A stretch of DNA of 64,000 nucleotides from contig DASYXS010000020.1 in the NCBI GenBank assembly GCA_035934535.1, positions 357 through 64,356 of the forward strand, in the 5' to 3' direction. Below the pieces are notes generated by a model. The model did not search any database, was not told the DNA's origin, and saw only the letters and a list, made by a program, of their open reading frames with translations. This stretch comes from a bacterium (lineage in GTDB: Bacteria > Sysuimicrobiota > Sysuimicrobiia > Sysuimicrobiales > Segetimicrobiaceae). The position numbers were made by a program, and so were the translations under genes. Of this stretch, positions 34,567-51,746 are shown one piece after another (positions within the stretch are counted from its first letter, which is position 1; the number at the start of each line of letters is the position of its first letter).

Positions 34567-34632
34567 GCGGCCGCCGCGGCGTTCCGGCTCTCGGCCCCTA
34601 CGCGTCCGCCTCCCGGCCGGGCCGCGGCGCGA

Positions 34633-36171: not shown

Positions 36172-36278
36172 CTGTGGCCGACCCCCTCCCGATTGGGCGC
36201 CCCGAAGCCCCGTCACCGCCTCGTAGCCCGTCCTGCCTAGTTAGGTCACCGTACGGCAAGTCCTGCTCGCCGGGACCG

Positions 36279-37016
36279 TCACCCGCGGCCGGCCGTCTCG
36301 TCGGAGGGCACCTCGATGCCGAGGTATGCCGCGCGCACCTGTTGGTTGTTCGTGAGCTCGGCGCTCGTGCCGTGCATGACCACCCGCCCGCTCTCGAGCA
36401 CGTAGGCGCGCCGCACCAGGGCCAGGGCGCGGGCCACGTTCTGCTCGACCAGGAGAATCGCCATCCCCATCGCGTGGATCTCCTCGATCTTGTCGAAAGT
36501 GGCATCGGCCACCACGGGAGCGAGTCCCAACGACGGCTCGTCCAGCATCAAGAGGCGCGGTTTCAACATCAGCCCGCGGCCCACGGCGAGCATCTGCTGT
36601 TCCCCTCCGCTCAGCGTTCCGGCGAGCTGCCCGCGGCGTTCGGCCAGCACAGGGAAGATGCCGAAGACCACGTCCATCGTGCGCCGCCGCTCGGCCTTGG
36701 CGCGGGGAATGTAGGCGCCCATCTCCAGATTTTCTTTCACCGTCATCTCGGGGAACACTTGGCGGCCCTCGGGCACGTGCGCGATCCCAAGTTCCGCGAT
36801 CTTGTACGGCGGCAGGGCGGCGAGGTTGACACCGCCGAAGGTCATGGTCCCCGACTGCAGTCGCATGAGCCCCGAAATGGCGCGCAGCGTCGTACTCTTC
36901 CCCGCGCCGTTGGCGCCCAGGAGCGCCACGGCTTCGCCGTCGCCCACCGACAGGCCGACGCCGGCGAGGGCCTTCACGGATCCGTAACCGGCGGTCACGC
37001 CGGTGAGGGTCAGCAC
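36279..37016 (-). CDS. livF: Branched-chain amino acid ABC transporter ATP-binding protein (LivF type)
   Basis: 245 aa. Walker A GANGAGKST, signature LSGGEQQMLAVGRGL, and gene order within a Liv-type operon. Confidence 0.85.
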   Translation of the reverse strand: MLTLTGVTAGYGSVKALAGVGLSVGDGEAVALLGANGAGKSTTLRAISGLMRLQSGTMTFGGVNLAALPPYKIAELGIAHVPEGRQVFPEMTVKENLEMGAYIPRAKAERRRTMDVVFGIFPVLAERRGQLAGTLSGGEQQMLAVGRGLMLKPRLLMLDEPSLGLAPVVADATFDKIEEIHAMGMAILLVEQNVARALALVRRAYVLESGRVVMHGTSAELTNNQQVRAAYLGIEVPSDETAGRG

Positions 37017-37028
37017 CGGCGCTCCTCG

Positions 37029-37760
37029 CTAGCTATGCGCGTAGCCGCCGCTTCCGAGGTAGGCGCGAATCACTTCGGGGTGCGCCGCGATCTCTTTCGG
37101 ACTCCCCTCGGCGATCTTCTGTCCGTGGTCCAGCACGACGATGTGCTGCGCGAGCGCCATGATCGCGCGCATCACGTGCTCGACGATCACGATCGTCAGT
37201 CCCCGCCGGGCGAGCTGGCGCACCAGGCCGACGGCCTGGTCGATCTCGGTATGATTCAGCCCTGCCATCGCCTCGTCGAGCAGCAGGATCCGGGGCTCGG
37301 TCGCAAGGGCCCGGGCCACCTCCAGCCGCCGCTGGTCGATGGTCGGAAGGTCGCGCGCCAGACCGGCCTCTTTGGCCGTGAGCCCGACGAACTCGATCGC
37401 ACGGCGCGCGCGCTCCCGGGCCGCCGCCACCCGCCTGTCGCGCAGCAGCGCCCCGGTCATGACGTTCGCGAGCACCGTCATCCGGCCGAACGGACGGGCC
37501 ACCTGGAAGGTGCGCGCCAAGCCGCGGGCGCAGACGTCGTACGGATACAAACCGACGAGTTCGTGACCGTAGGCGAGCGCCGAGCCCGCGTCCGGGCGGT
37601 AATACCCGGTGATGAGGTTGAAGCTGGTGGTCTTCCCCGCCCCGTTGGGCCCGATGAGCGCCACGGTTTGTCCTTCCTCCACCGCAAACGAGAGGTTGTG
37701 GACGGCGCGGAGCCCTCCGAACCGCTTGCTGAGCCCGCGGACCACCAGCGCCTCAGCCAT
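37029..37760 (-). CDS. livG: Branched-chain amino acid ABC transporter ATP-binding protein (LivG type)
   Basis: 243 aa. FGGLRAVHNLSF start, Walker A GPNGAGKTT, LLLDEAMAGLN. Confidence 0.85.
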   Translation of the reverse strand: MAEALVVRGLSKRFGGLRAVHNLSFAVEEGQTVALIGPNGAGKTTSFNLITGYYRPDAGSALAYGHELVGLYPYDVCARGLARTFQVARPFGRMTVLANVMTGALLRDRRVAAARERARRAIEFVGLTAKEAGLARDLPTIDQRRLEVARALATEPRILLLDEAMAGLNHTEIDQAVGLVRQLARRGLTIVIVEHVMRAIMALAQHIVVLDHGQKIAEGSPKEIAAHPEVIRAYLGSGGYAHS

Positions 37761-38733
37761 CGAGCGGCACTCCCTTCCGCAGCGCGCCCCCCGCGGGCGA
37801 AGCCGGCGGGCGCGCCGGGCCGATGATCCGCGCGTAGACCTCCGTGACGGCGCCCAGGAGTCCGGTCGGCCGCCAGAGGATGACCGCGATCAGGATCACC
37901 GAGTACAGCGCCAGCTGCACGCCCGCGTGGGCGCCGCCGCCGAGCCAGCTTTGGAGCAGCGCGGAGGCAGGCTCCAGGAGCGCCGAGCCGAGGACCGGTC
38001 CCCACGGGGTGCCGATGCCGCCCACGATGGACACCAGCGCCGCCTCCACCGAGACGTTGAAGCTGAACGCGGTGTTCGGATCGATGAAGTAGATGTACTG
38101 CACGTAAAACGTCCCCGCCAGCCCGGTCAGGAACGCGCTGACCAGGTAGATATCGCGTTTGATCCGCGGGACGTTGACGCCGACGGCTTCGGCCGCGTGC
38201 TGGTCCTCACCCACGGCCACCAGGTAGTACCCCAGCCATGATCGCTCGACCCAATAGGTGACCGCCAGTCCGGCCGCGAGCAGGCCGAGCGCGAGATAAT
38301 AGTAGGCGGCCTTGCCGGCGAACTGCATCATCAACGGCGAATTGCCGAGATTGGGGATCGTGGTGCCGACCGCGCCCCACGCGAAATCGCGAAACTTCAG
38401 AAAGAGCAGCATCAACGCCTGCGCCGTGCCGATAGTGGCGATCGCGAAGTAGGGGCCGCGCAGCCGGAAGCACAACGCGCCGATCGGCAGGCTGGCCAGC
38501 GCGGCCACGACGCCCCCCGCGATCATGCCGATCCAGGGGGAGATGCCGGCGCGGATCAACAGCAGCGTCGACGTATAGGCGCCGAGCCCGAAGTACGCCG
38601 CGTGGCCCAATGACAGCTGCTGGGCGTACCCGCCCAAAAGATTCCAGGCCGCCCCGATGAACGCGAACAGAAACACCCGGATGCAGATGTCCAGGGCGAA
38701 GGCGTTCGAGACCGCCAGCGGCAGCGCGACCAC
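37753..38733 (-). CDS. livM: Branched-chain amino acid ABC transporter permease (LivM type), start uncertain
   Basis: Track ORF 37753..39429 is an over-extension through livH. The permease body has NLLGGYAQQLSLGHAAYFGLGAY. The first canonical start after the livH stop is GTG 38733; CTG 38766 or an ATA overlapping the livH TAG are alternatives. Confidence 0.8.
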   Translation of the reverse strand: MVALPLAVSNAFALDICIRVFLFAFIGAAWNLLGGYAQQLSLGHAAYFGLGAYTSTLLLIRAGISPWIGMIAGGVVAALASLPIGALCFRLRGPYFAIATIGTAQALMLLFLKFRDFAWGAVGTTIPNLGNSPLMMQFAGKAAYYYLALGLLAAGLAVTYWVERSWLGYYLVAVGEDQHAAEAVGVNVPRIKRDIYLVSAFLTGLAGTFYVQYIYFIDPNTAFSFNVSVEAALVSIVGGIGTPWGPVLGSALLEPASALLQSWLGGGAHAGVQLALYSVILIAVILWRPTGLLGAVTEVYARIIGPARPPASPAGGALRKGVPLDG

Positions 38734-38783
38734 GGCCAGCGCCGCGGCCAGCGCCAGCGCCTGCAGACCGCGCGGTCCCGGTG

Positions 38784-39653
38784 CTATCGTGTTTGCCCGC
38801 CGTAAAGGCCGCCCGGGCGGACGGCCAGCGTGACCAGCAGCATGGCGAAGACCACGATCAGGCCCGAGTCTGCGCCGACGAACTGGACGCCGAGAGACTC
38901 CGCCATCCCCATCATCAGCCCCGCGATCAACGCTCCCCGGACGTTTCCGAGCGTGCCCAGCACGACGGCAACGAACGCGAACAGTACAAACTGCTGCCCG
39001 ACGGTGGGATAGGCGGGGTAGAACGGCATCAACAGCGAGCCCGCGGCGCCGGCCAGGGCGAGCGCCAGGCCTACCGCGACCGAGAAGACCCGGTCGGGGT
39101 TGACGCCCATCAGCATCGCCACGTCCCGGTTCTGCGCCGCCGCCCGCATCGCCTTGCCGAGATCGGTCGTCCGGAGGAAGATCTCGAGGGCGGCGCTCAA
39201 CAGCATCGCGACGGCGAACGCGATCACGCGGGGGACGCTGAGGTACAGCGGCCCCAGGCGCAGGGACGCGAACGTGTAGCCCGTCTGCACGGTCCGGTAG
39301 TCGGCGGTGAACAGCAGCAGCGCCACGTTCATGAGGAGCAGCGAGATCGCAAAGGTCAGGAAGATCTGCGGCATGTCCCCGAGGCCCAGCACCCGCCGGA
39401 GCAGGAACTTCTGGAAGAACACGCCGCACACGAACAGCGCCGGCATCGAGACGGCGAGCGACGCCAGCGGGTCGAGCCGGATGAGCGTCGCCAGCCAGTA
39501 GCTGATGTACATGCCGATCATCACGAACTCGCCCTGGGCGAAGTTGACGATCTTGACTACGCCGAAGATCAGCGTGACCCCGATACTGACGAGCGCGTAG
39601 ATGCCGCCGATCAGCAGGCCGTTGACGACCGCCTGGGCGACGACAGCCGTCAT
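38784..39653 (-). CDS. livH: Branched-chain amino acid ABC transporter permease (LivH type)
   Basis: 289 aa. QAVVNGLLIGGIYALVSIGVTLIFGVVKIVNFAQGEF is the typical LivH N-terminus. Confidence 0.9.
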   Translation of the reverse strand: MTAVVAQAVVNGLLIGGIYALVSIGVTLIFGVVKIVNFAQGEFVMIGMYISYWLATLIRLDPLASLAVSMPALFVCGVFFQKFLLRRVLGLGDMPQIFLTFAISLLLMNVALLLFTADYRTVQTGYTFASLRLGPLYLSVPRVIAFAVAMLLSAALEIFLRTTDLGKAMRAAAQNRDVAMLMGVNPDRVFSVAVGLALALAGAAGSLLMPFYPAYPTVGQQFVLFAFVAVVLGTLGNVRGALIAGLMMGMAESLGVQFVGADSGLIVVFAMLLVTLAVRPGGLYGGQTR

Positions 39654-39669
39654 GGCCGGTTCGCCGCGG

Positions 39670-40908
39670 CTACTTCATCAAGGGAGCGCGGGCGTCGGCC
39701 TTCGGAAACACGGCCACGAGGTCGCCGTGCTGCCACTGCACGCCGACCGGATGCGCGTAGATGTTCTTGCCGGTTTGATCGAACTTCACCTTGCCGCCGG
39801 GACACATCGCCGCGTAGCCGGCGGAGACGTCGAGGGACGCCAGGGCGTCGCGCACCTTCACCGGGTCCGGGGACGCCGCCCGCTCGAGCGCGTTCGCGAT
39901 CATGAACGTCTGGGCCACCAGGCCGCCGGCGTACTCGAAGATGAACTCGCCGTACGCCTTTTGATAGGCGTCGTTGACGCGCCGCGCGTCCGCGTCGATG
40001 TCGTGGTTCCAGTGCGCCACGCCGAGCAGCCCCTCCGCGTCCTTCCCGACCCCCTTGTAGAACTCGGGCTGCACGAACCCGCCCGACCCTCCGTTGATCG
40101 GAATGTTGACGCCCATCTGCTTCATCGTGCGCACGATGAGGATCAGGTCGTTCAGATACGAGACGGCGACGAGCATCCCCGCGCCGGAGGCCCGCACCTT
40201 GTTCACGAGCGGCGTGGCGTCGGTGAAGCCGGCCGAGTACGGCTCGAACATGATGATCTCCACGCCTTCGCCGGCGGCCTGATCCTGGAGCCCCTTCGAG
40301 GTCGCGGTGCCGAAGGCCGTGTTCTCAAACACGACCGCCACCTTGGGCTTGCCGCTCACCAGTTTGGACATCTGGAGAATCGCCTTCGCAAACTGCGATG
40401 CGCGCGCAAAGGGCGTGAAGGTGAACCGGCGGCCGCCTTGATTGAGCTGGTCCGTGCTGGACCCGGTCAGCAGCGGCACCTGGTGCCGTTCGGCCACTTC
40501 GCTGGCGATCAGGGTCAAGGCACTCGCGTAGCAGCCGTGAATCGCGGAGAGCCGGTTGCTGGTGATCAGCCGCTCCGTCTCGGTCCGGGTGACGGTGGGG
40601 TCGCTTTGGATATCCGACGTGATAAGGTTGAGTTTGGCGCCGCCGAGCGCCCGAATGCCGCCTCTGTCGTTGACCATCCGGACGGCGAGTCTGGCGGCGT
40701 TGACGATGCCCTGGCCGATCTGCGCCAGGCCGCCGGTCACGGGATACAGACCCCCAATGTTAATGGTGGGCGCCGTCGCCGCGGAGAGACGGGCAATGCC
40801 CCCGTACGCGGAAAGCGCGCCGGCGGTGACCGCGCTGCGTGCGGCCGTCGCGAGCAGACCTCGCCGGGTATAGCGTCGTGACAACGACGTGCCGCGCGGT
40901 TTCGCCAC
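39670..40908 (-). CDS. Branched-chain amino acid ABC transporter substrate-binding protein, Tat-like signal
   Basis: Trimmed to GTG 40908, 7 nt after GGAGG. SRRYTRRGLLATAA twin-arginine-like signal and a periplasmic binding-protein type I body (GLYPVTGGLAQIG). Confidence 0.9.
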   Translation of the reverse strand: MAKPRGTSLSRRYTRRGLLATAARSAVTAGALSAYGGIARLSAATAPTINIGGLYPVTGGLAQIGQGIVNAARLAVRMVNDRGGIRALGGAKLNLITSDIQSDPTVTRTETERLITSNRLSAIHGCYASALTLIASEVAERHQVPLLTGSSTDQLNQGGRRFTFTPFARASQFAKAILQMSKLVSGKPKVAVVFENTAFGTATSKGLQDQAAGEGVEIIMFEPYSAGFTDATPLVNKVRASGAGMLVAVSYLNDLILIVRTMKQMGVNIPINGGSGGFVQPEFYKGVGKDAEGLLGVAHWNHDIDADARRVNDAYQKAYGEFIFEYAGGLVAQTFMIANALERAASPDPVKVRDALASLDVSAGYAAMCPGGKVKFDQTGKNIYAHPVGVQWQHGDLVAVFPKADARAPLMK

Positions 40909-40957
40909 TTTGGGACCTCCTTGGTTGCAGCTCGTGCCCAGGCCCTTGACAGTCGGC

Positions 40958-40987
40958 ATTATAATTGTCGACAATAGACGATGTCAA
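40958..40987 (-). promoter_or_regulatory. Sigma70-type promoter for the liv operon
   Basis: The reverse strand reads TTGACA, 18 nt, TATAAT (both hexamers perfect), about 45 nt upstream of the binding-protein GTG. The -35 lies on codons 1-3 of the divergent gntR-type gene. Confidence 0.6.
40964..40975. promoter_or_regulatory. 12-bp palindrome, probable GntR-family operator
   Basis: ATTGTCGACAAT (perfect) inside the promoter spacer. It fits the GT-N-AC core pattern known for GntR/FadR-type operators. Confidence 0.5.
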
Positions 40988-41721
40988 GCGATTCACCAAT
41001 TCGACGCATGGGGACTGTGTTGGAAACTCCGATTCAGCGTGAAATCCTTCGCGATAAGATCTTTGACGTTCTCAAGACTTGGATCCTAAACGGCACGCTC
41101 GCGCCGGGCGAGCGGATCGTCGAATCGAGCGTGGCAAGGCAGCTGCAGGTGAGCCGGGCGCCGCTGCGCGAGGCGCTGTGGCTTCTCGCGAACGTCGGGC
41201 TCGTGCGGTTCAGGCCGCATCAAGGGGCGTTCGTCGCCACGCTGTCCGAGCAAGACGTCAAGGAGATTTTCGAAATTCGCGAGACCCTGGAAACCCACGC
41301 CGCGAAGAAGGTGCGCGCCGCGCTCACGCGCGAAAACGAGAACCGCCTCGAGGGCGCGCTCCGCGCTCTGGAAAATGCCGCCCGCGACCGCGACGTAACG
41401 CGCTGCACCAACGCGGACCTGGATTTTCACCGGACGCTCTGCGAGCTTTCCGGCAACCGGCATCTCACAGAGATCCTCAACGACGTCTCAACCCGATTCT
41501 TCGCCTACGAACTGATTCGGGATCTGCGCAACCCGGGCGGCTACCAGTTCGAGGAGAAGGTCGCCGAGCACCGCGAGCTGCTTCGCCTCATTTTCACGGG
41601 CACGGATCGGGAAATCGAAACGGGGTTCCGGGAGCTCTTCGCCCGCTTCCTCGGCCACGTCCTCACGCGCTTCCGGGCGAACGAAGGCGTCACGCCGGCC
41701 GTTACGCGCGGCGCAGGGTGA
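40981..41721 (+). CDS. GntR family transcriptional regulator (FadR/FCD subfamily)
   Basis: 246 aa. The HTH block ERIVESSVARQLQVSRAPLREALWLLANVGLV is followed by an all-helical FCD-like domain (EIRETLETHAA...DLDFHRTLCELSGN). Confidence 0.9.
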   Translation: MSSDSPIRRMGTVLETPIQREILRDKIFDVLKTWILNGTLAPGERIVESSVARQLQVSRAPLREALWLLANVGLVRFRPHQGAFVATLSEQDVKEIFEIRETLETHAAKKVRAALTRENENRLEGALRALENAARDRDVTRCTNADLDFHRTLCELSGNRHLTEILNDVSTRFFAYELIRDLRNPGGYQFEEKVAEHRELLRLIFTGTDREIETGFRELFARFLGHVLTRFRANEGVTPAVTRGAG

Positions 41722-41998: not shown

Positions 41999-42436
41999 TT
42001 AGGGTCTGTATCCGGCAGGCCACACGATAAACGTACCGACCTGGCCGAGCGACGCGTGATTGTACTGCTCGCACAAGAAGTTGAACTGTCCGGGCGTCTG
42101 CGGCACGAACGTCACGTCGGCGGTCTTGCCGTTATCGACCAGGACGTATTTCCAGCCGTCGCCTTTCGCCACGCCTTGTTGCGCGTCGCCGGTCACGGTG
42201 TAGTTCAGGCTTTGAAAGAACGGGGACGCGATGCTGTGCACCCGGCCCGGATGGGTCTTGTCGTCGTTGGTGACTCGTAGCGTGATTCGATCGCCGACGT
42301 TCATCGTGACGACGCTGGGGTCGTACTTGAACGATACCATCGAGATGTTGATGGTTCGAGCCGGCGGGGTCTGTGCCGATGTCACGAAGCTGGAGCCAGT
42401 CAGCAGCGTCGCCGCGAGAACCGTTGCCGCCGTCAA
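41999..42436 (-). CDS. Secreted cupredoxin-like protein
   Basis: Signal peptide ending SAQ, a beta-sandwich pattern (TMNVGDRITLRVTNDD) and candidate ligands H..(HSIASP) and C-x4-H-x4-Q (FLCEQYNHASLGQ). The start may be a CTG at 42448, 6 nt after GGGGAGGG. Confidence 0.65.
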   Translation of the reverse strand: MTAATVLAATLLTGSSFVTSAQTPPARTINISMVSFKYDPSVVTMNVGDRITLRVTNDDKTHPGRVHSIASPFFQSLNYTVTGDAQQGVAKGDGWKYVLVDNGKTADVTFVPQTPGQFNFLCEQYNHASLGQVGTFIVWPAGYRP

Positions 42437-42534: not shown

Positions 42535-44439
42535 ATGAGTGATCGGACCCCGGCACCCTCGGCCGTCGAGCCGGTTGAGGATCTCCTACGCCGCGTGCCG
42601 TTTTTTCGGGATCTCGACCGCATTGAGGCTGCCCGGCTGGTCGGCGCGCTGGAAAAGGCTTACTTTACCGCCGGCACGCTGATCTTCTCCGAAGGCGCGG
42701 AGGCCGACTCACTGTTCTTGCTCGAGGCCGGCAAGGTTCAGGTTTCCGTCGCGGCCGAAGGCGGCGAGCGGTCCGTGGCGGTTCTCGAGGCCCCTGGATA
42801 CTTCGGCGAACTCGGCCTGCTCCTCGCGCGTCGCACCGGCTCCGTGCGTGCGCTGACCGACGTTGAGACATGGACGCTCCCTCGCCACCGGTTCAACCAG
42901 GTGGTCCGCGAGCGCGGGGCCGTAGGCGTGGCCGTGGCCGCGTCTCTGGCCCGGTTGATCGAAGACCGTTCCCGCGAGCACGCGGGGGGCACGGCCGTGG
43001 CGCGGGCACCGGCCGCCCCCGCGGCGGCGCCGGAAGCGGCATGGCCCCGCCCGTGGCGCATCGCCGCGGCCGCGGCGCCCGTACTCCTGCCCCTCGCCTT
43101 GTGGCTGGTCCCGCCCCCGGCCGGCCTGACCACTCGCGGGTGGCACGTCGGACTCATCGTCCTCGGGGCGGCGCTCGGTTGGCTGCTCCAACCGGTGCCC
43201 GATTTCGTGATCGGCCTGGCGATGACGACGGCCTGGGGACTGACCGGACTCGTCCCCATCACGCTCGCGTTTGCCGGATTTGCCAGCCCGACATGGGTCC
43301 TCGCGTTCGGGGCGATCGGCCTCGCCGCCGCCATGGCGCGCTCGGGGCTCCTGTTCAGGTTCGCACTCCTGCTCCTCAGAACCTTACCGGCCACGCACAC
43401 CGGTCAACTCTTCGCGCTGTTGATCGGCGGCGTATTGACGACCCCGCTGGTACCCGCGGTGAACGCCCGGATTTCTTCCGCAAGCGGGCTCGCGCGCGAA
43501 GTGGCGCAGGCCCTGGGATACGGTGAGCGGAGCCGCGCGAGCGCCGGCCTCGCGTTTGCGGGATTCATCGGCAATTCGACCTTCAGCAGCGTCTTTCTCA
43601 CGGGGCTGGCGACCAACTTCTTTCTGCTCGGCCTCCTGCCGGCGGCCGAGCGGGCGCGCGCCGACTGGCTCTCGTGGCTTGCGGACGCCGCCCCGGTCGG
43701 GCTCCTGGTATTTGTCGGGGCGCTGGCGGCCCTGCTGTTCTTCTTTCGCCCCGAGCGCGCCTCAACGATCGCACCGGAGGCATTGCGGCGGCAGCGGCGA
43801 GTCTTGGGGGCGCTTTCGAAACACGAGATCGTGACGATCGTGGCAGTCGCCGTCTTCCTCGCCGGGATGCTGCTCGAGCCGGTGCTCCGCATCGACCCGG
43901 CCTGGCTGGCGACGACCGCGCTCGTCATCGTCCTGGCCGGTGGCGTCCTCGATTCGGCGACCTTTCGCAGCGGGATACAGTGGGGATTTCTCATCCTCTT
44001 CGGGCTCCTGGTCGGTTCCGGGGCGGTATTCCGCACCGTCGGGATCGACCGGTGGATCGCGCGGGAGCTGGCGCCGCTCGTGTACCTCGCGGGACAACCG
44101 GCCGTCCTGGTGGCGGTGCTCGGCGCGCTCATCGCGGCCTGCCGCTTGGTGCTGCCCCGCGTCCCGGCAAATTTTCTGCTGATCCTGGCCTTGCTGCCGG
44201 TCGCCCCGCAGTTGCGGCTCTCCCCTTGGCTCGTCGGTTTCATCGTGCTCACGGTGGGCAACACGTGGCTGTTCCCCGGCCTCAGCGATTTCTACATCGT
44301 GATGAGGGAGAACACCAGAGGCGAGATGTTTACCGACCGCGACGGGCTCCGGGTCGGCGTGCTGGTGACGATGTTGGTCTTGATGGCAATTACGGCCGCT
44401 GTACCGTACTGGCGGGCGATCGGGCTGATCACCCGGTGA
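42535..44439 (+). CDS. Cyclic-nucleotide-binding domain fused to a DASS/SLC13-type anion transporter
   Basis: Starts at ATG 42535 within track ORF 42373..44439. The N-terminal cNMP-binding fold has FFRDLD, GYFGELGLLLARRTGSVRA. It is followed by ~480 aa of polytopic membrane domain resembling divalent anion:Na+ symporter/citrate-transporter-like permeases. Confidence 0.75.
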   Translation: MSDRTPAPSAVEPVEDLLRRVPFFRDLDRIEAARLVGALEKAYFTAGTLIFSEGAEADSLFLLEAGKVQVSVAAEGGERSVAVLEAPGYFGELGLLLARRTGSVRALTDVETWTLPRHRFNQVVRERGAVGVAVAASLARLIEDRSREHAGGTAVARAPAAPAAAPEAAWPRPWRIAAAAAPVLLPLALWLVPPPAGLTTRGWHVGLIVLGAALGWLLQPVPDFVIGLAMTTAWGLTGLVPITLAFAGFASPTWVLAFGAIGLAAAMARSGLLFRFALLLLRTLPATHTGQLFALLIGGVLTTPLVPAVNARISSASGLAREVAQALGYGERSRASAGLAFAGFIGNSTFSSVFLTGLATNFFLLGLLPAAERARADWLSWLADAAPVGLLVFVGALAALLFFFRPERASTIAPEALRRQRRVLGALSKHEIVTIVAVAVFLAGMLLEPVLRIDPAWLATTALVIVLAGGVLDSATFRSGIQWGFLILFGLLVGSGAVFRTVGIDRWIARELAPLVYLAGQPAVLVAVLGALIAACRLVLPRVPANFLLILALLPVAPQLRLSPWLVGFIVLTVGNTWLFPGLSDFYIVMRENTRGEMFTDRDGLRVGVLVTMLVLMAITAAVPYWRAIGLITR

Positions 44440-44469: not shown

Positions 44470-44994
44470 TCAGGCGGTGCGGTGGGCCGGCCGGCGCGCG
44501 GGGCGCACGCCGAACATCCTCTGCCACGGAACCCAGAACGCCTCCTTGGGCGGCGGTGGCACCGCCGGGCCAAGAAGATCTCTCCCGGTCATCAGCGAGA
44601 CCAAGGCGTCGCCGATCATCTCTTCGAGTACGGCGGATGCAGCCTCGTCAAATTCCTGATCGGTCGCGTAGGCGGCGCGTCGAATCCCGCTGTGCAGGTG
44701 CGCCGCGACGTCCCAACGCTCCTCCGTCAAGCGCGCGACGAGCGAGTAGGACGATCCGGCACGAATGCGGAATCGGGCGGGGCCGATCTTCCGGTGAAGC
44801 TGAAGCAGGATGGGCTGTTCGGTCGACGCCACGAACGCCTGGGCGACGTCGAAGCAATGGGCCGCGAGGCGTTCCACCCGCTCCTCGAGCTCTTGGAGCT
44901 TCGCTTCGCGCTGGGCCAAAAACCGAGCGCGCTCCTGGAGCTCGCTCTCCAGCTCCTCCACCCTCTTGCGGAGATGCTCACTTGCGACGCCCAC
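44470..44994 (-). CDS. Hypothetical protein with N-terminal coiled coil
   Basis: 174 aa, GTG start after GGGGGGA. The heptad-like RKRVEELESELQERARFLAQREAKLQELEERVERL has coding-like composition. No family recognised. Confidence 0.45.
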   Translation of the reverse strand: MGVASEHLRKRVEELESELQERARFLAQREAKLQELEERVERLAAHCFDVAQAFVASTEQPILLQLHRKIGPARFRIRAGSSYSLVARLTEERWDVAAHLHSGIRRAAYATDQEFDEAASAVLEEMIGDALVSLMTGRDLLGPAVPPPPKEAFWVPWQRMFGVRPARRPAHRTA

Positions 44995-45183: not shown

Positions 45184-46791
45184 ATGAGTTTGCAGGTCAA
45201 GCTCGTCCTCCTGTTCTTGTTCCTCGAGGACTTCATTTTTGGCGTCTTCCTGTTCCTCGTGCGGCGCGGGACGTTGGTGCAGCAGAGCACCGTGTGGACC
45301 GGCCTGCTGCTCTCCGCCGTCGGGGTGGGCCTCGCGGCGTGGCTGGCGCGCGGGCTCGTTCAGCCCCTCCGCAGCCTGGTCGGCGCGGCCCGGAAGATCG
45401 CGCAGGGCGACCTCGACGTGCGTCTGCAGGTTACGACGAAGGACGAGGTGGGGCTCCTCGCGGACGCGTTCAACCGCATGGCCGCCAGCCTCAAGGCCAC
45501 CGTCGAAGCCCTGAACCGCAAGGTCCGCGAATCGCAGACGCTGTACGAGATCAGCCGCGAGGTCAACGGGCAGGTGGCCTATGAGCCGACCCTCGATCTC
45601 ATCGCGGAGCAGGCGCAGCATCTGCTCGGGGCCGACGCGGGGCTGGTCGCCCTTCGCCAGGGCGAGACCGACGTGTTCACCACCCAGGCCGTGAGCGGCC
45701 ACATCGCCGACAGTTTTGCGGGCACGCACTTCACGCTGAACGGATCTCTCGGCGAGCGCGTCTTGAGTTTCGGGACCCCGGCCGCCGCGGACGGCGATGC
45801 CGGCCGCACCCACCCTCACCCGGAAGCCGCGCTGCCATCGGTGCTCGGCGTGCCCCTTCGGGTCCACGATCGCGTGATCGGCGTGTTGTACGCGGCCAGC
45901 CGGGAGCCCGACAAATTCGACGTCGACGCCGAGCGGCTGCTCGCCGCGCTCGGCGACCAGGCCGCCATCGCCATCGAAACCGCCCGGCTGCACGACGATG
46001 TGAAGGCCTACGCGCGGGAACTCGAAGCCATGGTGGCGCTGCGAACGCGCGAGCTCAAAGATCTGAACGACCAGCTGACGGAAGCATCGCAGCACAAGTC
46101 CCAGTTCCTGGCGAACATGAGCCACGAGCTGCGCACCCCGTTGAACGCGATTCTGGGGTATACGGAGTTGATCCTGGATGACATCTACGGCGCCGTTCCG
46201 GACAAAATCCGGGACGTCTTGGGGCGCATGCAGCTGAGCGGCCGTCATCTCCTCCGGCTGATCAACGACGTGCTCGATCTCTCCAAAATCGAGGCCGGCC
46301 GGGCCTCGCTGTCGCTCGGCGATTACTCGATGCGGGCCGTCGTCCAGACGGTCTTCACCGCGGTCGAGTCCCTGGCCAAGGAGAAGAAGATCGCGCTCAC
46401 GGTCTCCCTGCCGAACGATTTGCCCCCGGGCCGGGGGGACGAGCGGCGCATCACTCAGGTTTTGTTGAACCTGGTCGGCAACGCCATCAAATTCACGGAG
46501 ACGGGCGAGGTGCGTATCGAAGCGTCCGCGCGCGACGCGGAGTTCCAGGTCACGGTCGCGGACTCCGGCCCCGGCATCGCGGAAGCCGACCGCCAGCGGG
46601 TGTTCGAGGAGTTCCAGCAGGTGGACAACACCAGCACCCGCAACAAGGGCGGCGCCGGGCTCGGCCTCGCCATTGCGAAGCGGATCGTGGAGTGGCACGG
46701 CGGGCGGATCTGGGTCACGTCACGGCTCGGCGAAGGGTCGACGTTCGGATTCACCCTGCCGATTCGCGTCGAGACGGCCGGTGCGGCGTGA
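45184..46791 (+). CDS. Sensor histidine kinase (2 TM, HAMP, GAF, HisKA, HATPase_c)
   Basis: 535 aa. HAMP block DEVGLLADAFNRMAASL, then a GAF region, H-box SHELRTPLNAILGYTELIL, N box LLNLVGNAIKFT, G boxes DSGPGI and GGAGLGLAI. Confidence 0.9.
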   Translation: MSLQVKLVLLFLFLEDFIFGVFLFLVRRGTLVQQSTVWTGLLLSAVGVGLAAWLARGLVQPLRSLVGAARKIAQGDLDVRLQVTTKDEVGLLADAFNRMAASLKATVEALNRKVRESQTLYEISREVNGQVAYEPTLDLIAEQAQHLLGADAGLVALRQGETDVFTTQAVSGHIADSFAGTHFTLNGSLGERVLSFGTPAAADGDAGRTHPHPEAALPSVLGVPLRVHDRVIGVLYAASREPDKFDVDAERLLAALGDQAAIAIETARLHDDVKAYARELEAMVALRTRELKDLNDQLTEASQHKSQFLANMSHELRTPLNAILGYTELILDDIYGAVPDKIRDVLGRMQLSGRHLLRLINDVLDLSKIEAGRASLSLGDYSMRAVVQTVFTAVESLAKEKKIALTVSLPNDLPPGRGDERRITQVLLNLVGNAIKFTETGEVRIEASARDAEFQVTVADSGPGIAEADRQRVFEEFQQVDNTSTRNKGGAGLGLAIAKRIVEWHGGRIWVTSRLGEGSTFGFTLPIRVETAGAA

Positions 46792-47156
46792 TGGGCGGGC
46801 GCATTCTGGTCACCGAGGACAACGAAGACAACCGGCGCACCATGCACGATCTCCTCGTCAGCGCCGGGTACGAGGTGTACGAGGCGCTGACGGGCGCCGA
46901 GGGCGTCAGCATGGCCGGGGCCCAGCGTCCCGATCTGATCCTCATGGACATCCAGCTGCCTGTCTTCGACGGGTACGAGGCGACGCGGCGGATCAAAGCC
47001 GATCCGGCGCTCCGCGGCATTCCGATCATCGCGGTCACCTCGTATGCGCTCGGCGGCGACGAGGTGAAGGCGCGCGAGGCGGGCTGCGACGGCTATGTGG
47101 CCAAGCCCTTCAGTCCGCGCCAGCTGCTGGCCAAGGTTCGCGAGTACCTCCCCTGA
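46791..47156 (+). CDS. Single-domain response regulator (CheY-like receiver)
   Basis: The ATG overlaps the kinase TGA (TGATG). ILVTEDNEDN, phospho-acceptor LILMDIQLP, AVTSYA, KPF. Confidence 0.9.
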   Translation: MGGRILVTEDNEDNRRTMHDLLVSAGYEVYEALTGAEGVSMAGAQRPDLILMDIQLPVFDGYEATRRIKADPALRGIPIIAVTSYALGGDEVKAREAGCDGYVAKPFSPRQLLAKVREYLP

Positions 47157-47174: not shown

Positions 47175-48299
47175 GTGAGAACGCCGCCGCTTATCTTGAT
47201 CGCCGACGATAACCCGATGAACGTGGACGTCCTGCAGGCCCGGCTGGCGGCCCATGACTACGAGCTGGTGACCGCCGCGGACGGTGAGCAGGCGCTCGCG
47301 GCGGCGCGCGAGCACCTTCCGGACCTGATTTTGCTGGACGTGGACATGCCCAAGATGGACGGCCTCGAGGTGTGCCGCCGGCTGCGCGGAGACGATACCC
47401 TGCCGTTCATGCCGATCATCATGGTCACCGCCAAGGCCGACTCCGCCGACGTCGTCGCCGGGCTGGACGCCGGCAGCGACGAGTATCTCACCAAGCCGTT
47501 CGACGGAGCCGCCTTGGTGGCCCGGGTCAAGTCGATGCTGCGGATCAAAGCGCTGCACGACACCGTGCAGGCGCAGGCGGCGCAGCTGAGCGAGTGGAAC
47601 CGGACCTTGGAGCAGCGGGTCGCCGCGCAGGTGAGCGAGATCGAGCGGATGAACGGCCTCCGGCGCTTTCTGTCCCCCCAGATCGCGGAGGTCATTCTCT
47701 CCGCCGGGACCGACAAGATCCTCGAGAGCCACCGGCGCGAGATCACCGTCGCCTTCTGCGATCTCCGCGGCTTCACGACGTTTTCGGAGACCGCGGAGCC
47801 CGAAGAGCTGATGGGCGTTCTCCACGAGTACCACCGCGTTCTCGGCGAGGAGATCTTCCGCTTCGAGGGGACGCTGGAGCGCTTCGCGGGGGACGGTCTC
47901 ATGATCTTTTTCAACGATCCCGTGCCGTGTCCGGATCCCGCGCTGCGGGCCGTCCGTATGGCCGTCGAGATGCGGACCCGCGTGACGGCGCTCGCCGGCG
48001 CGTGGCGCAAGCGCGGCCACCAGCTGGGGTTCGGCATGGGCATCGCGCTTGGCTACGCAACCCTCGGGCGGATCGGGTTTGTGGGACGGTCCGACTACGG
48101 CGCGATCGGCACCGTCACGAACCTCGCCGCCCGGCTGTGCAGCGAAGCCGAGGCCGGCCAGATCCTCATCAGCCAGCGCGTCCACACGATGATCGAAGAC
48201 GCGGTGGAGGCGGAGCCGTTGGGCGACCTGACGCTCAAAGGATTGTCCAGGCCGGTCAGCGTCTTCAACGTGCTTCGTCTTCGGGAGACGGCCGGCTGA
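47175..48299 (+). CDS. Response-regulator receiver fused to a class III adenylate/guanylate cyclase
   Basis: 374 aa, GTG start after GGAAGG. Receiver blocks ILIADDNPMN, LILLDVDMP, KPF. A coiled linker follows, then cyclase blocks VAFCDLRGFT, FAGDGLMIFF, GAIGTVTNLAARL. Confidence 0.9.
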   Translation: MRTPPLILIADDNPMNVDVLQARLAAHDYELVTAADGEQALAAAREHLPDLILLDVDMPKMDGLEVCRRLRGDDTLPFMPIIMVTAKADSADVVAGLDAGSDEYLTKPFDGAALVARVKSMLRIKALHDTVQAQAAQLSEWNRTLEQRVAAQVSEIERMNGLRRFLSPQIAEVILSAGTDKILESHRREITVAFCDLRGFTTFSETAEPEELMGVLHEYHRVLGEEIFRFEGTLERFAGDGLMIFFNDPVPCPDPALRAVRMAVEMRTRVTALAGAWRKRGHQLGFGMGIALGYATLGRIGFVGRSDYGAIGTVTNLAARLCSEAEAGQILISQRVHTMIEDAVEAEPLGDLTLKGLSRPVSVFNVLRLRETAG

Positions 48300-48306
48300 C
48301 CCTGCC

Positions 48307-49140
48307 TCAGAAACTCGCGCCGACCGCGATGAACGGGCCCTCCCACTGGGTGTGGCACGGACAGATGGCAACGCCCGAGATGCGCAGGTCATTCTGAATC
48401 TCCCGAACGAACCGGTAACCGACCTCGACGTTCCAGCGCGCTGCCGACGTGTAGCGCACGCTGGCCTGCGCGTCCCAGCCGGTGCCGGTGGCGGTGGCCG
48501 ACTGCGTGCTGCCGTTGACCGGCCCGGATACCGTCGTGCTGACCGATGGCGCATAGGCGACCCCGGCGTTGAGCCACCATCCCGACTGGAACGGGTAGGA
48601 AAAGTCAAACCCGACGCGCGGGCCGGTGCTGTCCGCGGTGAGCGACGCGGATCCGAGGCCGAGGAGGTTCCCGGCGTACAGGCTTCCCTTCGCCTCGCCG
48701 TAGCCGATGAACGCTCGGAAGGTCACGGGCAGTAAAGGGTTCTCCGGAAGGGGACGCTGCACCAAGTATGATACGTCGGCGCTCCAGATGGTGTCGGTGC
48801 CGCCGAGCGACAGTCCAACCGGGGCCGCACCGGCAAACGCCCAATTTCCCTCGCTGCCGGTGACCCCGTTGAGATGGACTCCCCAGTGCGACCGCGTGTC
48901 CGCCCGGAAATCAATTCCGTACAGTTGCGAAGTCCACGTGTCCAGGTTGCCGCCGCCCGGCGCGGAGAAAAATTCCGAGGATGACGCCCAATACACACCT
49001 TGGATCGTGTACGTCACCGGCGAGACCCTGGTGTTGATCGGCACGGTGTACGTCACCGACGATTGCGCGGAGACCGGGACCGGAGCCGCACAGAGGGCGA
49101 GAACGACGCCGATGACGAGAGGGAGCGATGCCCCCCTCAT
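48307..49140 (-). CDS. Putative outer-membrane beta-barrel protein
   Basis: Track ORF trimmed to ATG 49140. Signal peptide MRGASLPLVIGVVLALCAAPVPVSAQ, alternating-hydrophobicity strands rich in G/S/T/Y, and a terminal ...IAVGASF (C-terminal Phe). Confidence 0.6.
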   Translation of the reverse strand: MRGASLPLVIGVVLALCAAPVPVSAQSSVTYTVPINTRVSPVTYTIQGVYWASSSEFFSAPGGGNLDTWTSQLYGIDFRADTRSHWGVHLNGVTGSEGNWAFAGAAPVGLSLGGTDTIWSADVSYLVQRPLPENPLLPVTFRAFIGYGEAKGSLYAGNLLGLGSASLTADSTGPRVGFDFSYPFQSGWWLNAGVAYAPSVSTTVSGPVNGSTQSATATGTGWDAQASVRYTSAARWNVEVGYRFVREIQNDLRISGVAICPCHTQWEGPFIAVGASF

Positions 49141-49280
49141 GGACGTCCTCTCAGGCCACGCGATGACACCATGGCAGGAAGTTTCGCGGTTCCTCAATTT
49201 CGCACCTCCGCACGGACGAGCTGAACGGCCTGAGAGGCCGCGCCTGTGCGCCATCGCGGGCGGGTCGAAGCGCCTGAAAT

Positions 49281-49307
49281 CAATGCCGCGCGGTCCCTCG
49301 GGTTCCC
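49281..49307. repeat. 27-nt element, copy 1 of 2 (partner at 55667-55693)
   Basis: AATGCCGCGCGGTCCCTCGGGTTCCCT, 25 of 27 identical to the partner by direct comparison. Located 140-170 nt upstream of the minus-strand barrel-protein start. Confidence 0.7.
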
Positions 49308-49455
49308 TGCTGCGACGCCGCAGGCCGGCGTCCGAAAGTCGGTTCGGCGGGGCATCATGATGCCGAGGCCCTGAGTCGCCCGGGTCCGGCGCGACGCGAG
49401 TTCCTCGTTGCGGCGCCGCGGCCGGATCGGGCAGGACCCGCGACGGAGGGGGAAC

Positions 49456-49797
49456 ATGCGCGCACGCCCGCTGTCCGTGCTCGTGATCGCGATCCTGCTC
49501 ATCGTCAGCATCTTGGGCCTGGGCATCGCGGAGGCTCAACTGGACACCGGTGAGTCGTACTGGGGCGAGCACATGATAAACGGGATCTTCCATCTGTGGC
49601 CGGCCGTGGTGATCGCAATCCTCATCGGACTCTTGGCCGGCGGGATGTTCGGACTGTACGAATTGGATGCCGCGACCATGCTGTTCTTGCTGGCGGCCTC
49701 GGCCTTTCTCGCCTACCATTTCTATTGGCAACCGGCCCACCCGGCCTCGGTGCTGTCTCCGGATTCCGGTCGTCTAAGATCGCCGCGGGCCGGGTAG
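49456..49797 (+). CDS. Small membrane protein (3 predicted TM helices)
   Basis: ATG 49456 preceded by GGAGGGGGAA. Hydrophobic spans SVLVIAILLIVSILGLGIA, WPAVVIAILIGLLAGGMFGL, MLFLLAASAFLAY. No family recognised. Confidence 0.45.
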   Translation: MRARPLSVLVIAILLIVSILGLGIAEAQLDTGESYWGEHMINGIFHLWPAVVIAILIGLLAGGMFGLYELDAATMLFLLAASAFLAYHFYWQPAHPASVLSPDSGRLRSPRAG

Positions 49798-49907: not shown

Positions 49908-51746
49908 ATGAGACACATGGTGGACCCACAAGCGACGGTCGAAACGCCGGAGGGCGCCACGCCGGCTGAATCCCCCGTCGCGGCGATCGCGCGCGCCCTG
50001 CTTGTCTTGACCGAGGCGGACCACGCCGCGATCTTCTTCCGTTCGCCGACCGGCATCGTGACCTGCCCGTGGTCGCACAACCTATCCGAACGGTACGTCG
50101 CCGAACTCGTCACTCCGAACGGCGTCAACCCCTGGATTCACATCCTCCGGCATCCGGAGCTCACATGCATGGATCTGCCGAAGGCCCGGCGGAGGGCCGA
50201 TCCCGCGCCGTGGATCGTGCGCGACGTTCTTGAATTGTCGTCCGATCACGCCGCGCTCGTTGACCGGTTCGTACGCGAAAACCTTCGGTCGATGTGCGTG
50301 TGGCCGCTCAGCCGGGCCGGCCGGGTCGTCGCCGCCCTTGCATATTACTACGACGCGCCGCACGAGTACTCCGAGGAAGACCAGGAGGGCATGCGTGCGT
50401 TCGCCGCGCAGGCGACGACGGCCCTCGGCGAGGGGATCGCCCAGAGCATCGGCGACGCCGCACGTGGAGCCGGTGAACGCATCGACACACACACACCGCC
50501 CGCCGGCGGACCGGCGGCGCAGCACACCCCCGCCGCCGCACAGACCGGGCCCGGAGCGGACCGGGCATCGCTGGAGGCCGAGCAGCGTCGCCTTGCCGAC
50601 GCGCAGGCGGCGCTCGCACAGCAAAACGAACGTCTGGAACAAGCACGGCGAATGCTGGAGGCCGACACAGACCGGCTCGCGGGCGAACGGAAGAAGCTCG
50701 CAACGGCGTGGCAGGAAGTGGAGGCCGCTCAAGCACGGGGGCGCGACGCGCGCGCGGGGATCACCGCGGAGCAGCAGCGGCTGGCGGATGCCCACCGCCG
50801 GCTCGAGACCGAGCGGGCGCAGCTGGTGGAAGCTCGTGCGGCCCTCGATGCTGAAAGAGCGCGCCGCGAAAGCGCTGGGGCCGAGCAGGCCGCGGCCCGG
50901 ATCGACGCGACAGACGAGGAGGCGCGCCTCTCGGAAAGTCGACGCCTGCTGCACGAGGAGAACGTTCGCCTCGAAGCGCTGCGACGAGACCTGGATGCGG
51001 AAAGAGCCCGGCTCGCCGGCGACCGGGCCTCGCTCGAGGCGGAGCGGCAGGCACTGGACACGGAGCGCGCGCGGGCGGCGCAGACGCAGACACAGCCGGA
51101 GGCCGAGGACGTCGCGCAAACGCAGCCCCCGGAGGCCGGCGCGACGACCTATCGCAGCCTGGTCGAGCGGGCCGGGGCGGCGAATGTACCGGATGACGAC
51201 GCGCGGATCGTCGCCGTGGCGCGGCGTCTGGATGCGCACAACGGCCATGTCGCGGACTTCAGCAAACGTCTGGCTGAGTGGGCGGTGGCGCTCGCGCGTG
51301 CGCTTCGGTGCTCCGATCCGGAGATCCTATCCACGCGCCGCGCCGCGCTTCTCCACGACATCGGCAAGATCGACGTACCCGAAGCGACGCTGAAAAAGGC
51401 GGCGGGCCTGACGGACGATGAGCGGAACATGTTCGAAAGAGAGCCCGCCGTCGCCCATCGGATGCTCAAAGACGTCGAAGGATTGGGCGACGTTGCGGCG
51501 ATTCTCCGCCACCGGTTTGAGCGCTGGGACGGCGCCGGACGTCCGGACCGGCTCAAAGGAGACGCAATCCCTCTGGGCGCGCGGATCTTGTCCGTCGTGG
51601 ATGCCTACGGCGAGATGATCACGGGCCGCCCGGGCGTTCCGAAGCTGTATTATCGCGACGCGATCGCCGCGCTTCGGCGTGAATCTGGGGTCCGGTTCGA
51701 TCCGGAGATTGCCGCCGCGTTCTGCCGCATTGTCGCGCACGGATAG
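49908..51746 (+). CDS. GAF-like domain, long coiled coil, HD-GYP-type phosphohydrolase
   Basis: 612 aa. The ~190-aa central Ala/Arg/Glu-rich repeat region contains AEQRRLADAQAAL / AEQQRLADAHRRL / LDAERARLAGDRASLEAERQAL. C-terminal HD block AALLHDIGKIDVP and RHRFERWDGAGRPDRL. Confidence 0.85.
   Translation: MRHMVDPQATVETPEGATPAESPVAAIARALLVLTEADHAAIFFRSPTGIVTCPWSHNLSERYVAELVTPNGVNPWIHILRHPELTCMDLPKARRRADPAPWIVRDVLELSSDHAALVDRFVRENLRSMCVWPLSRAGRVVAALAYYYDAPHEYSEEDQEGMRAFAAQATTALGEGIAQSIGDAARGAGERIDTHTPPAGGPAAQHTPAAAQTGPGADRASLEAEQRRLADAQAALAQQNERLEQARRMLEADTDRLAGERKKLATAWQEVEAAQARGRDARAGITAEQQRLADAHRRLETERAQLVEARAALDAERARRESAGAEQAAARIDATDEEARLSESRRLLHEENVRLEALRRDLDAERARLAGDRASLEAERQALDTERARAAQTQTQPEAEDVAQTQPPEAGATTYRSLVERAGAANVPDDDARIVAVARRLDAHNGHVADFSKRLAEWAVALARALRCSDPEILSTRRAALLHDIGKIDVPEATLKKAAGLTDDERNMFEREPAVAHRMLKDVEGLGDVAAILRHRFERWDGAGRPDRLKGDAIPLGARILSVVDAYGEMITGRPGVPKLYYRDAIAALRRESGVRFDPEIAAAFCRIVAHG

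Follow-up and report, generated by a model that had tools for sequence, protein, structure and literature searches.

In ion channels, the control of transport by a cyclic-nucleotide sensor within the same protein is well understood. Among secondary carriers it is known mainly from the eukaryotic protein SLC9C1, the sperm Na+/H+ exchanger, which is gated by a voltage sensor together with a cyclic-nucleotide-binding domain (CNBD) (PMC6052114). The 2007 catalogue of these domains by Kannan et al. contains mechanosensitive-channel, ABC-type and other CNBD families and no fusion to a DASS transporter (PMC2246266), and in a review of 2023 fusions of MFS transporters to CNBDs are mentioned as uncharacterised (PMC10710835). 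The human carriers of citrate, dicarboxylates and sulfate (SLC13) have the DASS fold. Its Na+ symporters bind Na+ and substrate with two Ser-Asn-Thr (SNT) motifs at the hairpin tips, and its exchangers form a separate clade (Sauer et al., PMC7553777). In the exchanger LaINDY, Arg159 is the surrogate for Na1 and His392 that for Na2, the arginine being kept in exchangers and absent from symporters (PMC7553777). This report concerns a gene at positions 42535 to 44439 of a 64,000-nucleotide stretch of contig DASYXS010000020.1, the whole of which is called the window. Its product joins a CNBD to a membrane domain of DASS fold in one polypeptide, and the architecture is conserved over a large family. 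The protein is probably a DASS elevator-type anion carrier with an N-terminal cytoplasmic CNBD, in which a cyclic nucleotide would switch transport post-translationally. Direct control of the carrier by the nucleotide is well supported by inference, and unproven. The features of the gene are as follows (aa, amino acids; AF2, AlphaFold2; pLDDT, predicted local distance difference test; TM, transmembrane).

42535..44439, + strand: complete gene of the CNBD-DASS fusion, ATG start, stop codon included, 634 aa
42565..42981, + strand: CNBD, aa 11-149, made up of helix A, an 8-stranded beta roll, helix B and a long helix C (aa 128-149)
42805..42852, + strand: phosphate-binding cassette GELGLLLARRTGSVRA, aa 91-106
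42982..43047, + strand: flexible linker from helix C to TM1, aa 150-171, AF2 pLDDT 44-60
43048..44418, + strand: DASS-fold (elevator-type) transporter domain, aa 172-628, all-helical
43441..43470, + strand: hairpin-1 tip motif TPLVPAVNAR, aa 303-312, with R312 last
44143..44169, + strand: hairpin-2 region RLVLPRVPA, aa 537-545, with R537 first

The reading frame from 42535 to 44439 on the + strand runs for 634 codons without interruption or frameshift. A single 634-aa frame joining both domains had been claimed in an original prediction made from the letters of the window, and the claim was borne out by stop-free translation and by Pfam: both domains scored above the Pfam cut-offs, with matches well outside anything that chance would give, the CNBD begins downstream of the start codon, and no frameshift dividing the region into two genes was found. 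The frame remains open in the 5' direction as far as a GTG at 42373, although extension to that codon would enter the divergent upstream gene. The ATG at 42535 is the start used in the public gene call, and is consistent with 120 homologues of 593-679 aa. The window protein has a public counterpart of 634 aa with 100% identity (P0001, named 'SLC13 family permease' by NCBI). The window contig originates from a forest-soil metagenome, and the same 634-aa protein is present on three contigs assembled independently, ie from ENA, from Logan and from an NCBI metagenome-assembled genome (MAG). Between 44439 and 45184 the ENA contig (L001), which encodes the identical protein, shows a one-base shift in coordinates relative to the window, which we attribute to an indel of one base that separates two independently made assemblies of one population.

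The Pfam profile cNMP_binding (PF00027) matched aa 43-126 with an E value of 2e-18 (66.6 bits, cut-off 27.5). The N-terminal cyclic-nucleotide (cNMP) binding fold with FFRDLD and a phosphate-binding cassette, as described in the original prediction, is therefore present, FFRDLD lying at aa 23-28 and the cassette at aa 91-106; all three Pfam families found in the protein, cNMP_binding, Na_sulph_symp and CitMHS, are above their cut-offs. An AF2 model of the fusion protein built on the 120 homologues had a mean pLDDT of 87.7 and a pTM of 0.77. Residues 1-9 are disordered in the model, and the CNBD region has a pLDDT of 80-96. It consists of helix A (29-37), eight beta strands within aa 40-116, a short cassette helix (92-95), helix B (117-126) and helix C (128-149). 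The pLDDT of the linker falls below 50 at aa 158-168, and its sequence is variable, the exceptions being R147, G151 and R175 at its edges. In a Foldseek search of the PDB the CNBD matched the N-terminal domains of Crp-family proteins, with a TMt of 0.83 for 2pqq and a root-mean-square deviation (rmsd) of 1.8 Å for 3d0s, the Crp of M. tuberculosis. Among the NCBIfam models the match to CRP (4.7e-8) was stronger than that to NtcA (2.3e-4), and a match to FtrB was also weak.

Conservation within the cassette was examined in the 120 homologues. None of them departs from G91 or R100; T101 is conserved in at least 90% and E92 in 80-89%, its position being otherwise occupied by Asp in the sequences inspected. 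The motif FG[E/D]xGxLLx[R/E]RT[A/G][S/T] was found in all subclades. R100 aligned by HMMER with the phosphate-binding Arg of PKA and with that of an apicomplexan multi-CNBD protein. From established CNBD biochemistry we take the conserved cassette residues to be those which hold the nucleotide by its ribose 2'-OH and cyclic phosphate. The alignment showed these putative nucleotide-contacting residues to be under purifying selection.

The membrane domain matched Na_sulph_symp (PF00939) over aa 178-558 (E 2e-34; 119.8 bits, cut-off 27) and CitMHS over aa 216-575 (51.4 bits, cut-off 31.9). Its DASS matches in the PDB by Foldseek were AtDiT2.1 (TMt 0.87, rmsd 2.8 Å), VcINDY (0.85) and NaCT (0.84), each with a probability of 1.00, and ArsB and Pho90 were also among the fold matches. 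The cut-off of the NCBIfam model TIGR00785, 'dass', was not reached (106.8 bits against 198.6). A profile search with the TM domain alone gave E values of 4.5e-29 for DiT1, 1.7e-23 for DiT2.1, 2.9e-21 for LaINDY and 1e-4 for VcINDY. By these comparisons the window protein is a divergent member of DASS, nearest to the exchanger clade.

The hairpins were aligned with those of the solved carriers. In hairpin 1, T303-P-L-V-P307-A-V-N-A-R312 aligned with P154-S-N-S-A-R159 of LaINDY and with PSVSAR of DiT1, and R312 corresponds in the alignment to LaINDY Arg159. It is invariant in the window family, and 57 of the 59 wider-clade sequences keep it; the hairpin-1 consensus of that clade is TPxxPSxNGR. 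The SNT motif is found in neither hairpin of the window protein, the residues being P-A-V-N-A-R in hairpin 1 and L-P-R-V-P-A in hairpin 2. Hairpin 2 has no His; R537, which is at least 90% conserved in the window family and present in 50 of the 59 wider-clade sequences, aligned one position off LaINDY His392, a tentative equivalence that comes from the alignment. Because an invariant Arg occupies the Na1-surrogate position and Ser-Asn-Thr motifs are missing, the carrier is probably Na+-independent, ie an exchanger or uniporter-like. The assignment in the original prediction to the DASS/SLC13 type of permease held by Pfam score and by fold, but its further assignment to the divalent-anion:Na+ symporters is probably wrong, in view of the missing SNT, the score below the 'dass' cut-off and the exchanger-like character of the protein. 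DASS carriers such as VcINDY have the N-terminus inside and the C-terminus outside. Because of that topology the CNBD of the fusion protein is expected to face the cytoplasm, which fits the C-terminal periplasmic binding protein carried by one relative, P0214.

A survey of the fusion, suggested with the original prediction, found PF00027 and PF00939 collinear in all of the best 120 protein clusters, at 50-75% identity. A scan of GTDB species genomes gave 64 loci, all of them in MAGs and mostly in Ca. Limnocylindria or other Chloroflexota. The other loci were in Ca. Dormibacterota, in unclassified 'bacterium' bins, and in single bins each of Gaiellaceae, Actinomycetota, Armatimonadota, Acidiferrales and Saccharimonadales. 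There was no cultured host or informative name among the sources, all of which were metagenomes or MAGs. The HMMER search restricted to the TM domain returned 1459 representatives (at 50% identity) with E <= 1e-3, and 372 with E <= 1e-30; architectures were counted in the best 150 from this search. An N-terminal CNBD was present in 103 of the 150, and the CNBD fusion is the dominant architecture in the transporter clade. In 42 of these 103 there are 200-400 extra aa between CNBD and carrier, with TPR repeats in some, and one of the 103 has a C-terminal Peripla_BP_6 domain. Forty-five of the 150 had no N-terminal extension (unfused proteins or fragments), and the remaining two had an extension without a match to the CNBD. 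Since genuine unfused relatives exist, eg P0156 (464 aa), the sensor would be a modular addition. The family members seemingly devoid of a CNBD proved in the tree to be those cut by contig ends, with no others. The CNBD-DASS fusion appears to be both ancient and selected.

Some members of the family depart from the plain two-domain form. P0214 (1005 aa, from a Logan metagenome) has a CNBD, a DASS domain and a C-terminal Peripla_BP_6/ANF_receptor domain, which suggests that uptake in that member may be assisted by a binding protein. A long-form subfamily of 740-1039 aa comprises P0131, P0137, P0139, P0168 and 38 more representatives; some of its members have precomputed matches to PF25873 in addition to the TPR repeats. 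One MAG, SMAG_U8773, contains three fusion paralogues (L009, L014 and L064), which are respectively 67%, 51% and 75% identical to the window protein. L064, the closest of the three, is split over several frames and is either a pseudogene or an assembly error.

The genes surrounding the homologues provide the link to cyclic nucleotides. At seven loci (L017, L018, L020, L025, L034, L054 and L058) a gene of 446-455 aa with Abhydrolase_1 and Guanylate_cyc domains lies directly upstream of the transporter gene on the same strand. In all seven the TGA stop codon of the cyclase overlaps the GTG or ATG start codon of the transporter, as GTGA or ATGA, which is by its sequence a classic translational-coupling arrangement. 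Six of the seven fall in one subclade of the neighbour-joining tree; L058 is truncated and was not placed. The cyclase domain is most similar to that of M. tuberculosis Rv1900c/LipJ (1ybt, E 1.5e-50), and keeps both metal-binding aspartates and the catalytic Arg, with a His where the catalytic Asn would be. Rv1900c itself is an adenylate cyclase. Elsewhere in the family the linkage takes other forms. At L028, where the transporter is 48% identical to that of the window, orthologues of the kinase, receiver (REC) and REC-cyclase genes found in the window (42%, 42% and 57% identity) are encoded at a distance of 4.6 kb from its gene. At L005 (transporter 74% identical) an orthologue of the kinase with 82% identity adjoins the transporter. 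Cyclases with STAND, TPR or LuxR modules abut the transporter gene at L014, L045, L055 and L069, and stand-alone CNBD genes flank it at L005, L006, L017 and L018.

A near-versus-far comparison of cyclases within 3 kb gave, when taken naively, 17 near against 2 far (p = 1e-5). This enrichment was driven by related loci and was discarded. Because the enrichment is an effect of relatedness, the argument rests on the translational coupling and on the recurring operon. The survey of co-occurrence with cyclase genes, which had been suggested together with that of the fusion, thus had a mixed outcome, with coupling at seven loci and a REC-cyclase operon near the gene at L028, and an enrichment that was lost upon dereplication.

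The following genes surround the transporter gene in the window.

41999..42340, - strand: cupredoxin-like small protein, divergent upstream gene, with faint matches to Cupredoxin_1 and Cu-oxidase_2
44470..44994, - strand: convergent 174-aa gene without a Pfam family, between the transporter and the kinase/cyclase operon
45184..46791, + strand: HAMP-GAF-HisKA-HATPase_c sensor histidine kinase (Pfam), operon gene 1
46791..47156, + strand: single-domain REC protein, Response_reg in the gene call
47175..48299, + strand: REC plus class III nucleotide cyclase, Response_reg 107.6 bits and Guanylate_cyc 57.7 bits (Pfam)

The transporter gene forms its own transcription unit, with a divergent gene on its 5' side and a convergent gene on its 3' side. 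Its promoter region measures about 195 bp, or up to 98 bp if the longer TTG start of the cupredoxin-like gene is used. The stop codon of the kinase and the start codon of the receiver overlap by one base (46789-46793), and the REC-cyclase begins 18 bp further on; together they have the look of a single compact operon. In a scan of the 64-kb window, 47175-48299 was the sole class III cyclase and the transporter was the sole CNBD protein. The receiver-controlled class III cyclase that the original prediction had placed 2.7 kb downstream is thus real, and the local signal-to-transport circuit drawn from it stands in part: proximity and the arrangements in relatives favour it, although transporter and cyclase do not form one operon in the window. 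The closest solved relative of the window cyclase is CyaB of P. aeruginosa (3r5g, E 4e-39). At the two specificity positions it has Arg ('ERFAGD') and Gly ('DYGAIG'); the pairs used for comparison were Lys/Thr, found in CyaB and CyaC, and Glu/Gly, found in Cya2. The REC-cyclase orthologue at L028 (4275-5390) has His and Gly at these positions.

Direct gating of the transporter by cAMP or cGMP, which the original prediction put forward, is probable, and the mechanism would be as follows. A cyclic nucleotide, most likely cAMP from class III cyclases encoded nearby, would bind to the CNBD, which is possibly dimerised through helix C, as in Crp. Binding would move the cassette and helices B and C, and with them the seating of the CNBD under the carrier. 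The movement would reach the scaffold helix TM1 through the short linker, a flexible stretch of about 20 residues, and the altered seating would permit or block the elevator motion of the transport domain, so that transport is turned on or off. Two features of the cyclases make cAMP the likeliest ligand: the coupled enzyme is of the Rv1900c kind, and that of the window has CyaB as its closest solved relative. cGMP is possible, because the specificity positions of the window cyclase match neither of the patterns compared.

Several observations weigh against this mechanism or against parts of it. The cassette is one residue short relative to PKA and the other CNBDs with which it was aligned by HMMER. 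Of 59 wider-clade sequences, 24 have R at the position of the cassette Arg and 18 have Y, and because the Arg is replaced, often by Tyr, some of the distant relatives may have another ligand or lack one. At most loci no cyclase was seen at a distance of up to 10 kb, and when the loci were collapsed to nine clusters the cyclase count became 3 near and 3 far (p = 0.33). In the window itself the cyclase is 2.7 kb away in a separate transcription unit, and both the opposite-strand 174-aa gene and the histidine-kinase gene lie between it and the transporter. Its Arg/Gly pair fits neither Lys/Thr nor Glu/Gly, so that its product could be cAMP or cGMP, and an attempt to call the product from these positions was dropped for that reason. 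On the side of the carrier, Glu146 and His392 of LaINDY have no identical counterparts, an invariant Gly299 taking the place of Glu146, and the carboxylate-binding Ser155-Asn156 of LaINDY is not conserved, being Ala-Val in the window protein. A standard C4-dicarboxylate cannot, from these residues, be assumed to be the substrate. Finally, no paper on the CNBD-DASS fusion was found in the literature searched, which does not span all journals.

The alternative that survives best is that the N-terminal fold senses a metabolite, as NtcA senses 2-oxoglutarate and further Crp/Fnr-type domains respond to ligands of their own, which would give feedback by substrate or product and no control by a second messenger. 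The best structural matches of the domain are indeed effector domains of the Crp/Fnr family, with weak matches to NtcA and FtrB in NCBIfam, and dicarboxylates are the substrates of its nearest solved carriers, which are DiT1, DiT2.1 and LaINDY. The DiT carriers transport 2-oxoglutarate and malate, and LaINDY binds alpha-ketoglutarate. The short cassette, the frequent Tyr in the wider clade and the lack of a nearby cyclase at most loci would also be accommodated. However, the window family retains the full cNMP signature G-E...R-T, and the match to CRP is better than that to NtcA, in whose cassette the Glu is missing (PMC2246266). If no cyclic nucleotide were involved, it would be difficult to account for the translational coupling to a cyclase or for the recurrence of the REC-cyclase operon. 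We therefore regard a metabolite sensor as unlikely.

We attach little credence to the proposal that the CNBD is a structural or dimerisation module without a ligand and that transport is constitutive. KCNH channels have ligand-free CNBD-homology domains and so provide a precedent; the one-residue shortening of the cassette and the degenerate cassettes of some relatives, and of a 140-aa CNBD protein encoded downstream of the transporter at L017 and L018, could be read in the same way. The residues that are invariant (G91 and R100) or nearly so (T101 and E92) are nevertheless exactly those contacting the ribose-phosphate, which a purely structural part would not be expected to show, and the linkage of the gene to cyclases also speaks against the proposal.

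Still less credence is given to the idea that the DASS-fold carrier exports the cyclic nucleotide, itself an organic anion, with the CNBD sensing its level in the cytoplasm and opening the carrier, in a system for cyclase-coupled cAMP secretion or homeostasis. In its favour, the transporter gene is translationally coupled to a cyclase gene, and the dicarboxylate-binding hairpin residues of LaINDY are not conserved, making a standard dicarboxylate an improbable substrate; DASS and related carriers of the ion-transporter superfamily handle diverse anions, ArsB and Pho90 being among the fold matches. On the other hand, we know of no DASS member that carries nucleotides, and the periplasmic binding protein fused to P0214 suggests uptake, at least in that member. 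If export were true, this would be the first DASS protein to transport nucleotides, one subclade would make its carrier in fixed proportion to an Rv1900c-like cyclase by translational coupling, and uncultured soil Chloroflexota and Dormibacterota would have a route for secreting cAMP as an extracellular signal.

That the fusion is an artefact of assembly or annotation, eg a sequencing error joining two adjacent genes, has practically no chance of being correct and is refuted: the broken frames of the L064 paralogue in MAG SMAG_U8773 do show that such assemblies contain errors, but the identical protein occurs on the independently assembled ENA, Logan and NCBI MAG contigs, the same collinear architecture recurs in the best 120 clusters and in 50 full-length loci, and the AF2 model is a continuous chain.

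Some further observations were made on genes around the homologues. Close relatives of the window gene at L005 and L006 are surrounded by small islands of cNMP-related genes (L005 9334-9756 and 11952-13171; L006 3100-3594 and 5675-7849; all on the - strand). The islands contain one to three stand-alone CNBD genes of 140-164 aa with canonical GE...PRSA cassettes and a Lactamase_B_2 gene of 277-287 aa, adjoined by a 128-aa PAS protein (L005) or by a 131-aa protein without a Pfam family (L006). A possible role for the protein of metallo-beta-lactamase fold is that of a class II-type cNMP phosphodiesterase. The 140-aa CNBD protein of L017 (5593-6012, + strand) and L018 (11899-12318, + strand) is encoded 33-39 bp downstream of the transporter on the same strand. 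Its cassette reads 'GELPNAD' at L017 and 'GEAPVAD' at L018, and because the phosphate-binding Arg is absent it may be a partner that does not bind a nucleotide, or one with a different ligand.

Three other leads from the gene neighbourhoods were rejected. A gene of about 173 aa without a Pfam family lies near several homologues and was considered as a conserved partner; the window copy, which is the convergent 174-aa gene, is homologous only to that of the close relative L005 (66-67%), and the others are unrelated. In many Limnocylindria loci the transporter frame is open for about 230 aa upstream, and this extension was considered as a hidden cyclase domain, but it proved to be Arg-rich off-frame sequence. 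Those loci have an alpha/beta-hydrolase gene 690 bp upstream, and the 690-bp gap holds a gene on the opposite strand that by eye resembles a pyrrolidone-carboxylate peptidase. Conserved neighbours gave no hint of the substrate: the synteny that they show is confined to particular lineages and involves unrelated enzymes (aldehyde:ferredoxin oxidoreductase, adenosine deaminase, gamma-glutamyl transpeptidase and short-chain dehydrogenase, together with a GNAT acetyltransferase, a TetR regulator and an acyl-CoA dehydrogenase).

In the window, the region around the cyclase is dense in signalling genes. Past the cyclase there are an outer-membrane beta-barrel-like gene (48307-49740, - strand) and a gene for a GAF + HD_5 protein (49908-51746, + strand), which we take to be possibly an HD-GYP-type phosphodiesterase. 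Upstream of the fusion gene, at about 32535-41721 (L001 1-9187), are an oligopeptide-type ABC importer (SBP_bac_5, two BPD_transp_1 and ABC_tran/oligo_HPY), a branched-chain-amino-acid-type ABC importer (Peripla_BP_6, two BPD_transp_2 and two ABC_tran) and a GntR/FCD regulator. These importers and the regulator are not conserved beside homologues of the fusion gene. No riboswitch or other structured RNA was found around the gene at E <= 1, and a scan for promoters and terminators was uninformative.

The CNBD-DASS family is real, large and unstudied. Automatic pipelines have already entered it in databases, for example as 'SLC13 family permease' or, for some members, as 'di/tricarboxylate transporter/CRP-like cAMP-binding protein'. 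That a transporter can be regulated by a ligand-binding domain fused to it is a principle already known; what has been identified here is a testable family, with no new principle revealed. The family is confined to abundant uncultured lineages of soil and groundwater whose cAMP biology is essentially uncharted, and it would offer a compact, bacterial, two-domain model for the regulation of an elevator-type carrier by a second messenger.

The carrier half of the protein is best compared with the DASS exchangers LaINDY, AtDiT1 and AtDiT2.1, with which it has the fold in common and which are its best sequence matches. LaINDY and the DiT proteins also have the hairpin-1 pattern P-x-x-x-A-R in common with the window protein, with the Arg aligned to Arg159. 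Unlike the window protein, LaINDY and the AtDiT carriers have no cytoplasmic regulatory domain, and identity is only about 20%; relative to LaINDY the window protein has Ala-Val for Ser155/Asn156, Gly299 for Glu146 and Arg537 beside the position of His392. With the symporters VcINDY, NaCT, NaDC1/3 and NaS1 it has in common the overall elevator fold and Pfam PF00939. In contrast to these Na+-coupled proteins it has no SNT, matches VcINDY weakly (1e-4) and falls below the TIGR00785 cut-off, and coupling to Na+ is therefore unlikely.

The sensor half is closest in structure to the effector domains of Crp/Fnr proteins (CRP, M. tuberculosis Crp and GlxR; 2pqq, 3d0s and 4byy). It resembles them in the G-E-L-G start of the cassette and in the long helix C, which is the dimerisation helix of Crp proteins. 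The output of Crp/Fnr proteins is a DNA-binding helix-turn-helix domain, whereas that of the window protein is a membrane carrier. The partner cyclase of the seven coupled loci has the architecture of Rv1900c (LipJ), ie an alpha/beta-hydrolase joined to a class III cyclase, and like it has His in place of the catalytic Asn. This Rv1900c-like enzyme is the partner in relatives; the nearby cyclase of the window itself is a REC-cyclase and is CyaB-like.

As for the whole protein, MloK1, SthK and the CNBD-linked MscS-type channels are prokaryotic membrane transport proteins which a fused canonical CNBD controls, and SthK and a bacterial CNBD cation channel (5v4s) are among the sequence matches of the window CNBD. 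Those proteins are channels with the CNBD C-terminal to the pore, whereas the window protein is a carrier with the CNBD at its N-terminus. The closest functional analogue is SLC9C1, the best-studied secondary carrier controlled by a covalently attached CNBD. It differs in having the unrelated CPA/NHE fold, a C-terminal CNBD together with a voltage sensor, and a eukaryotic host, and its homology to the window protein is confined to the CNBD.

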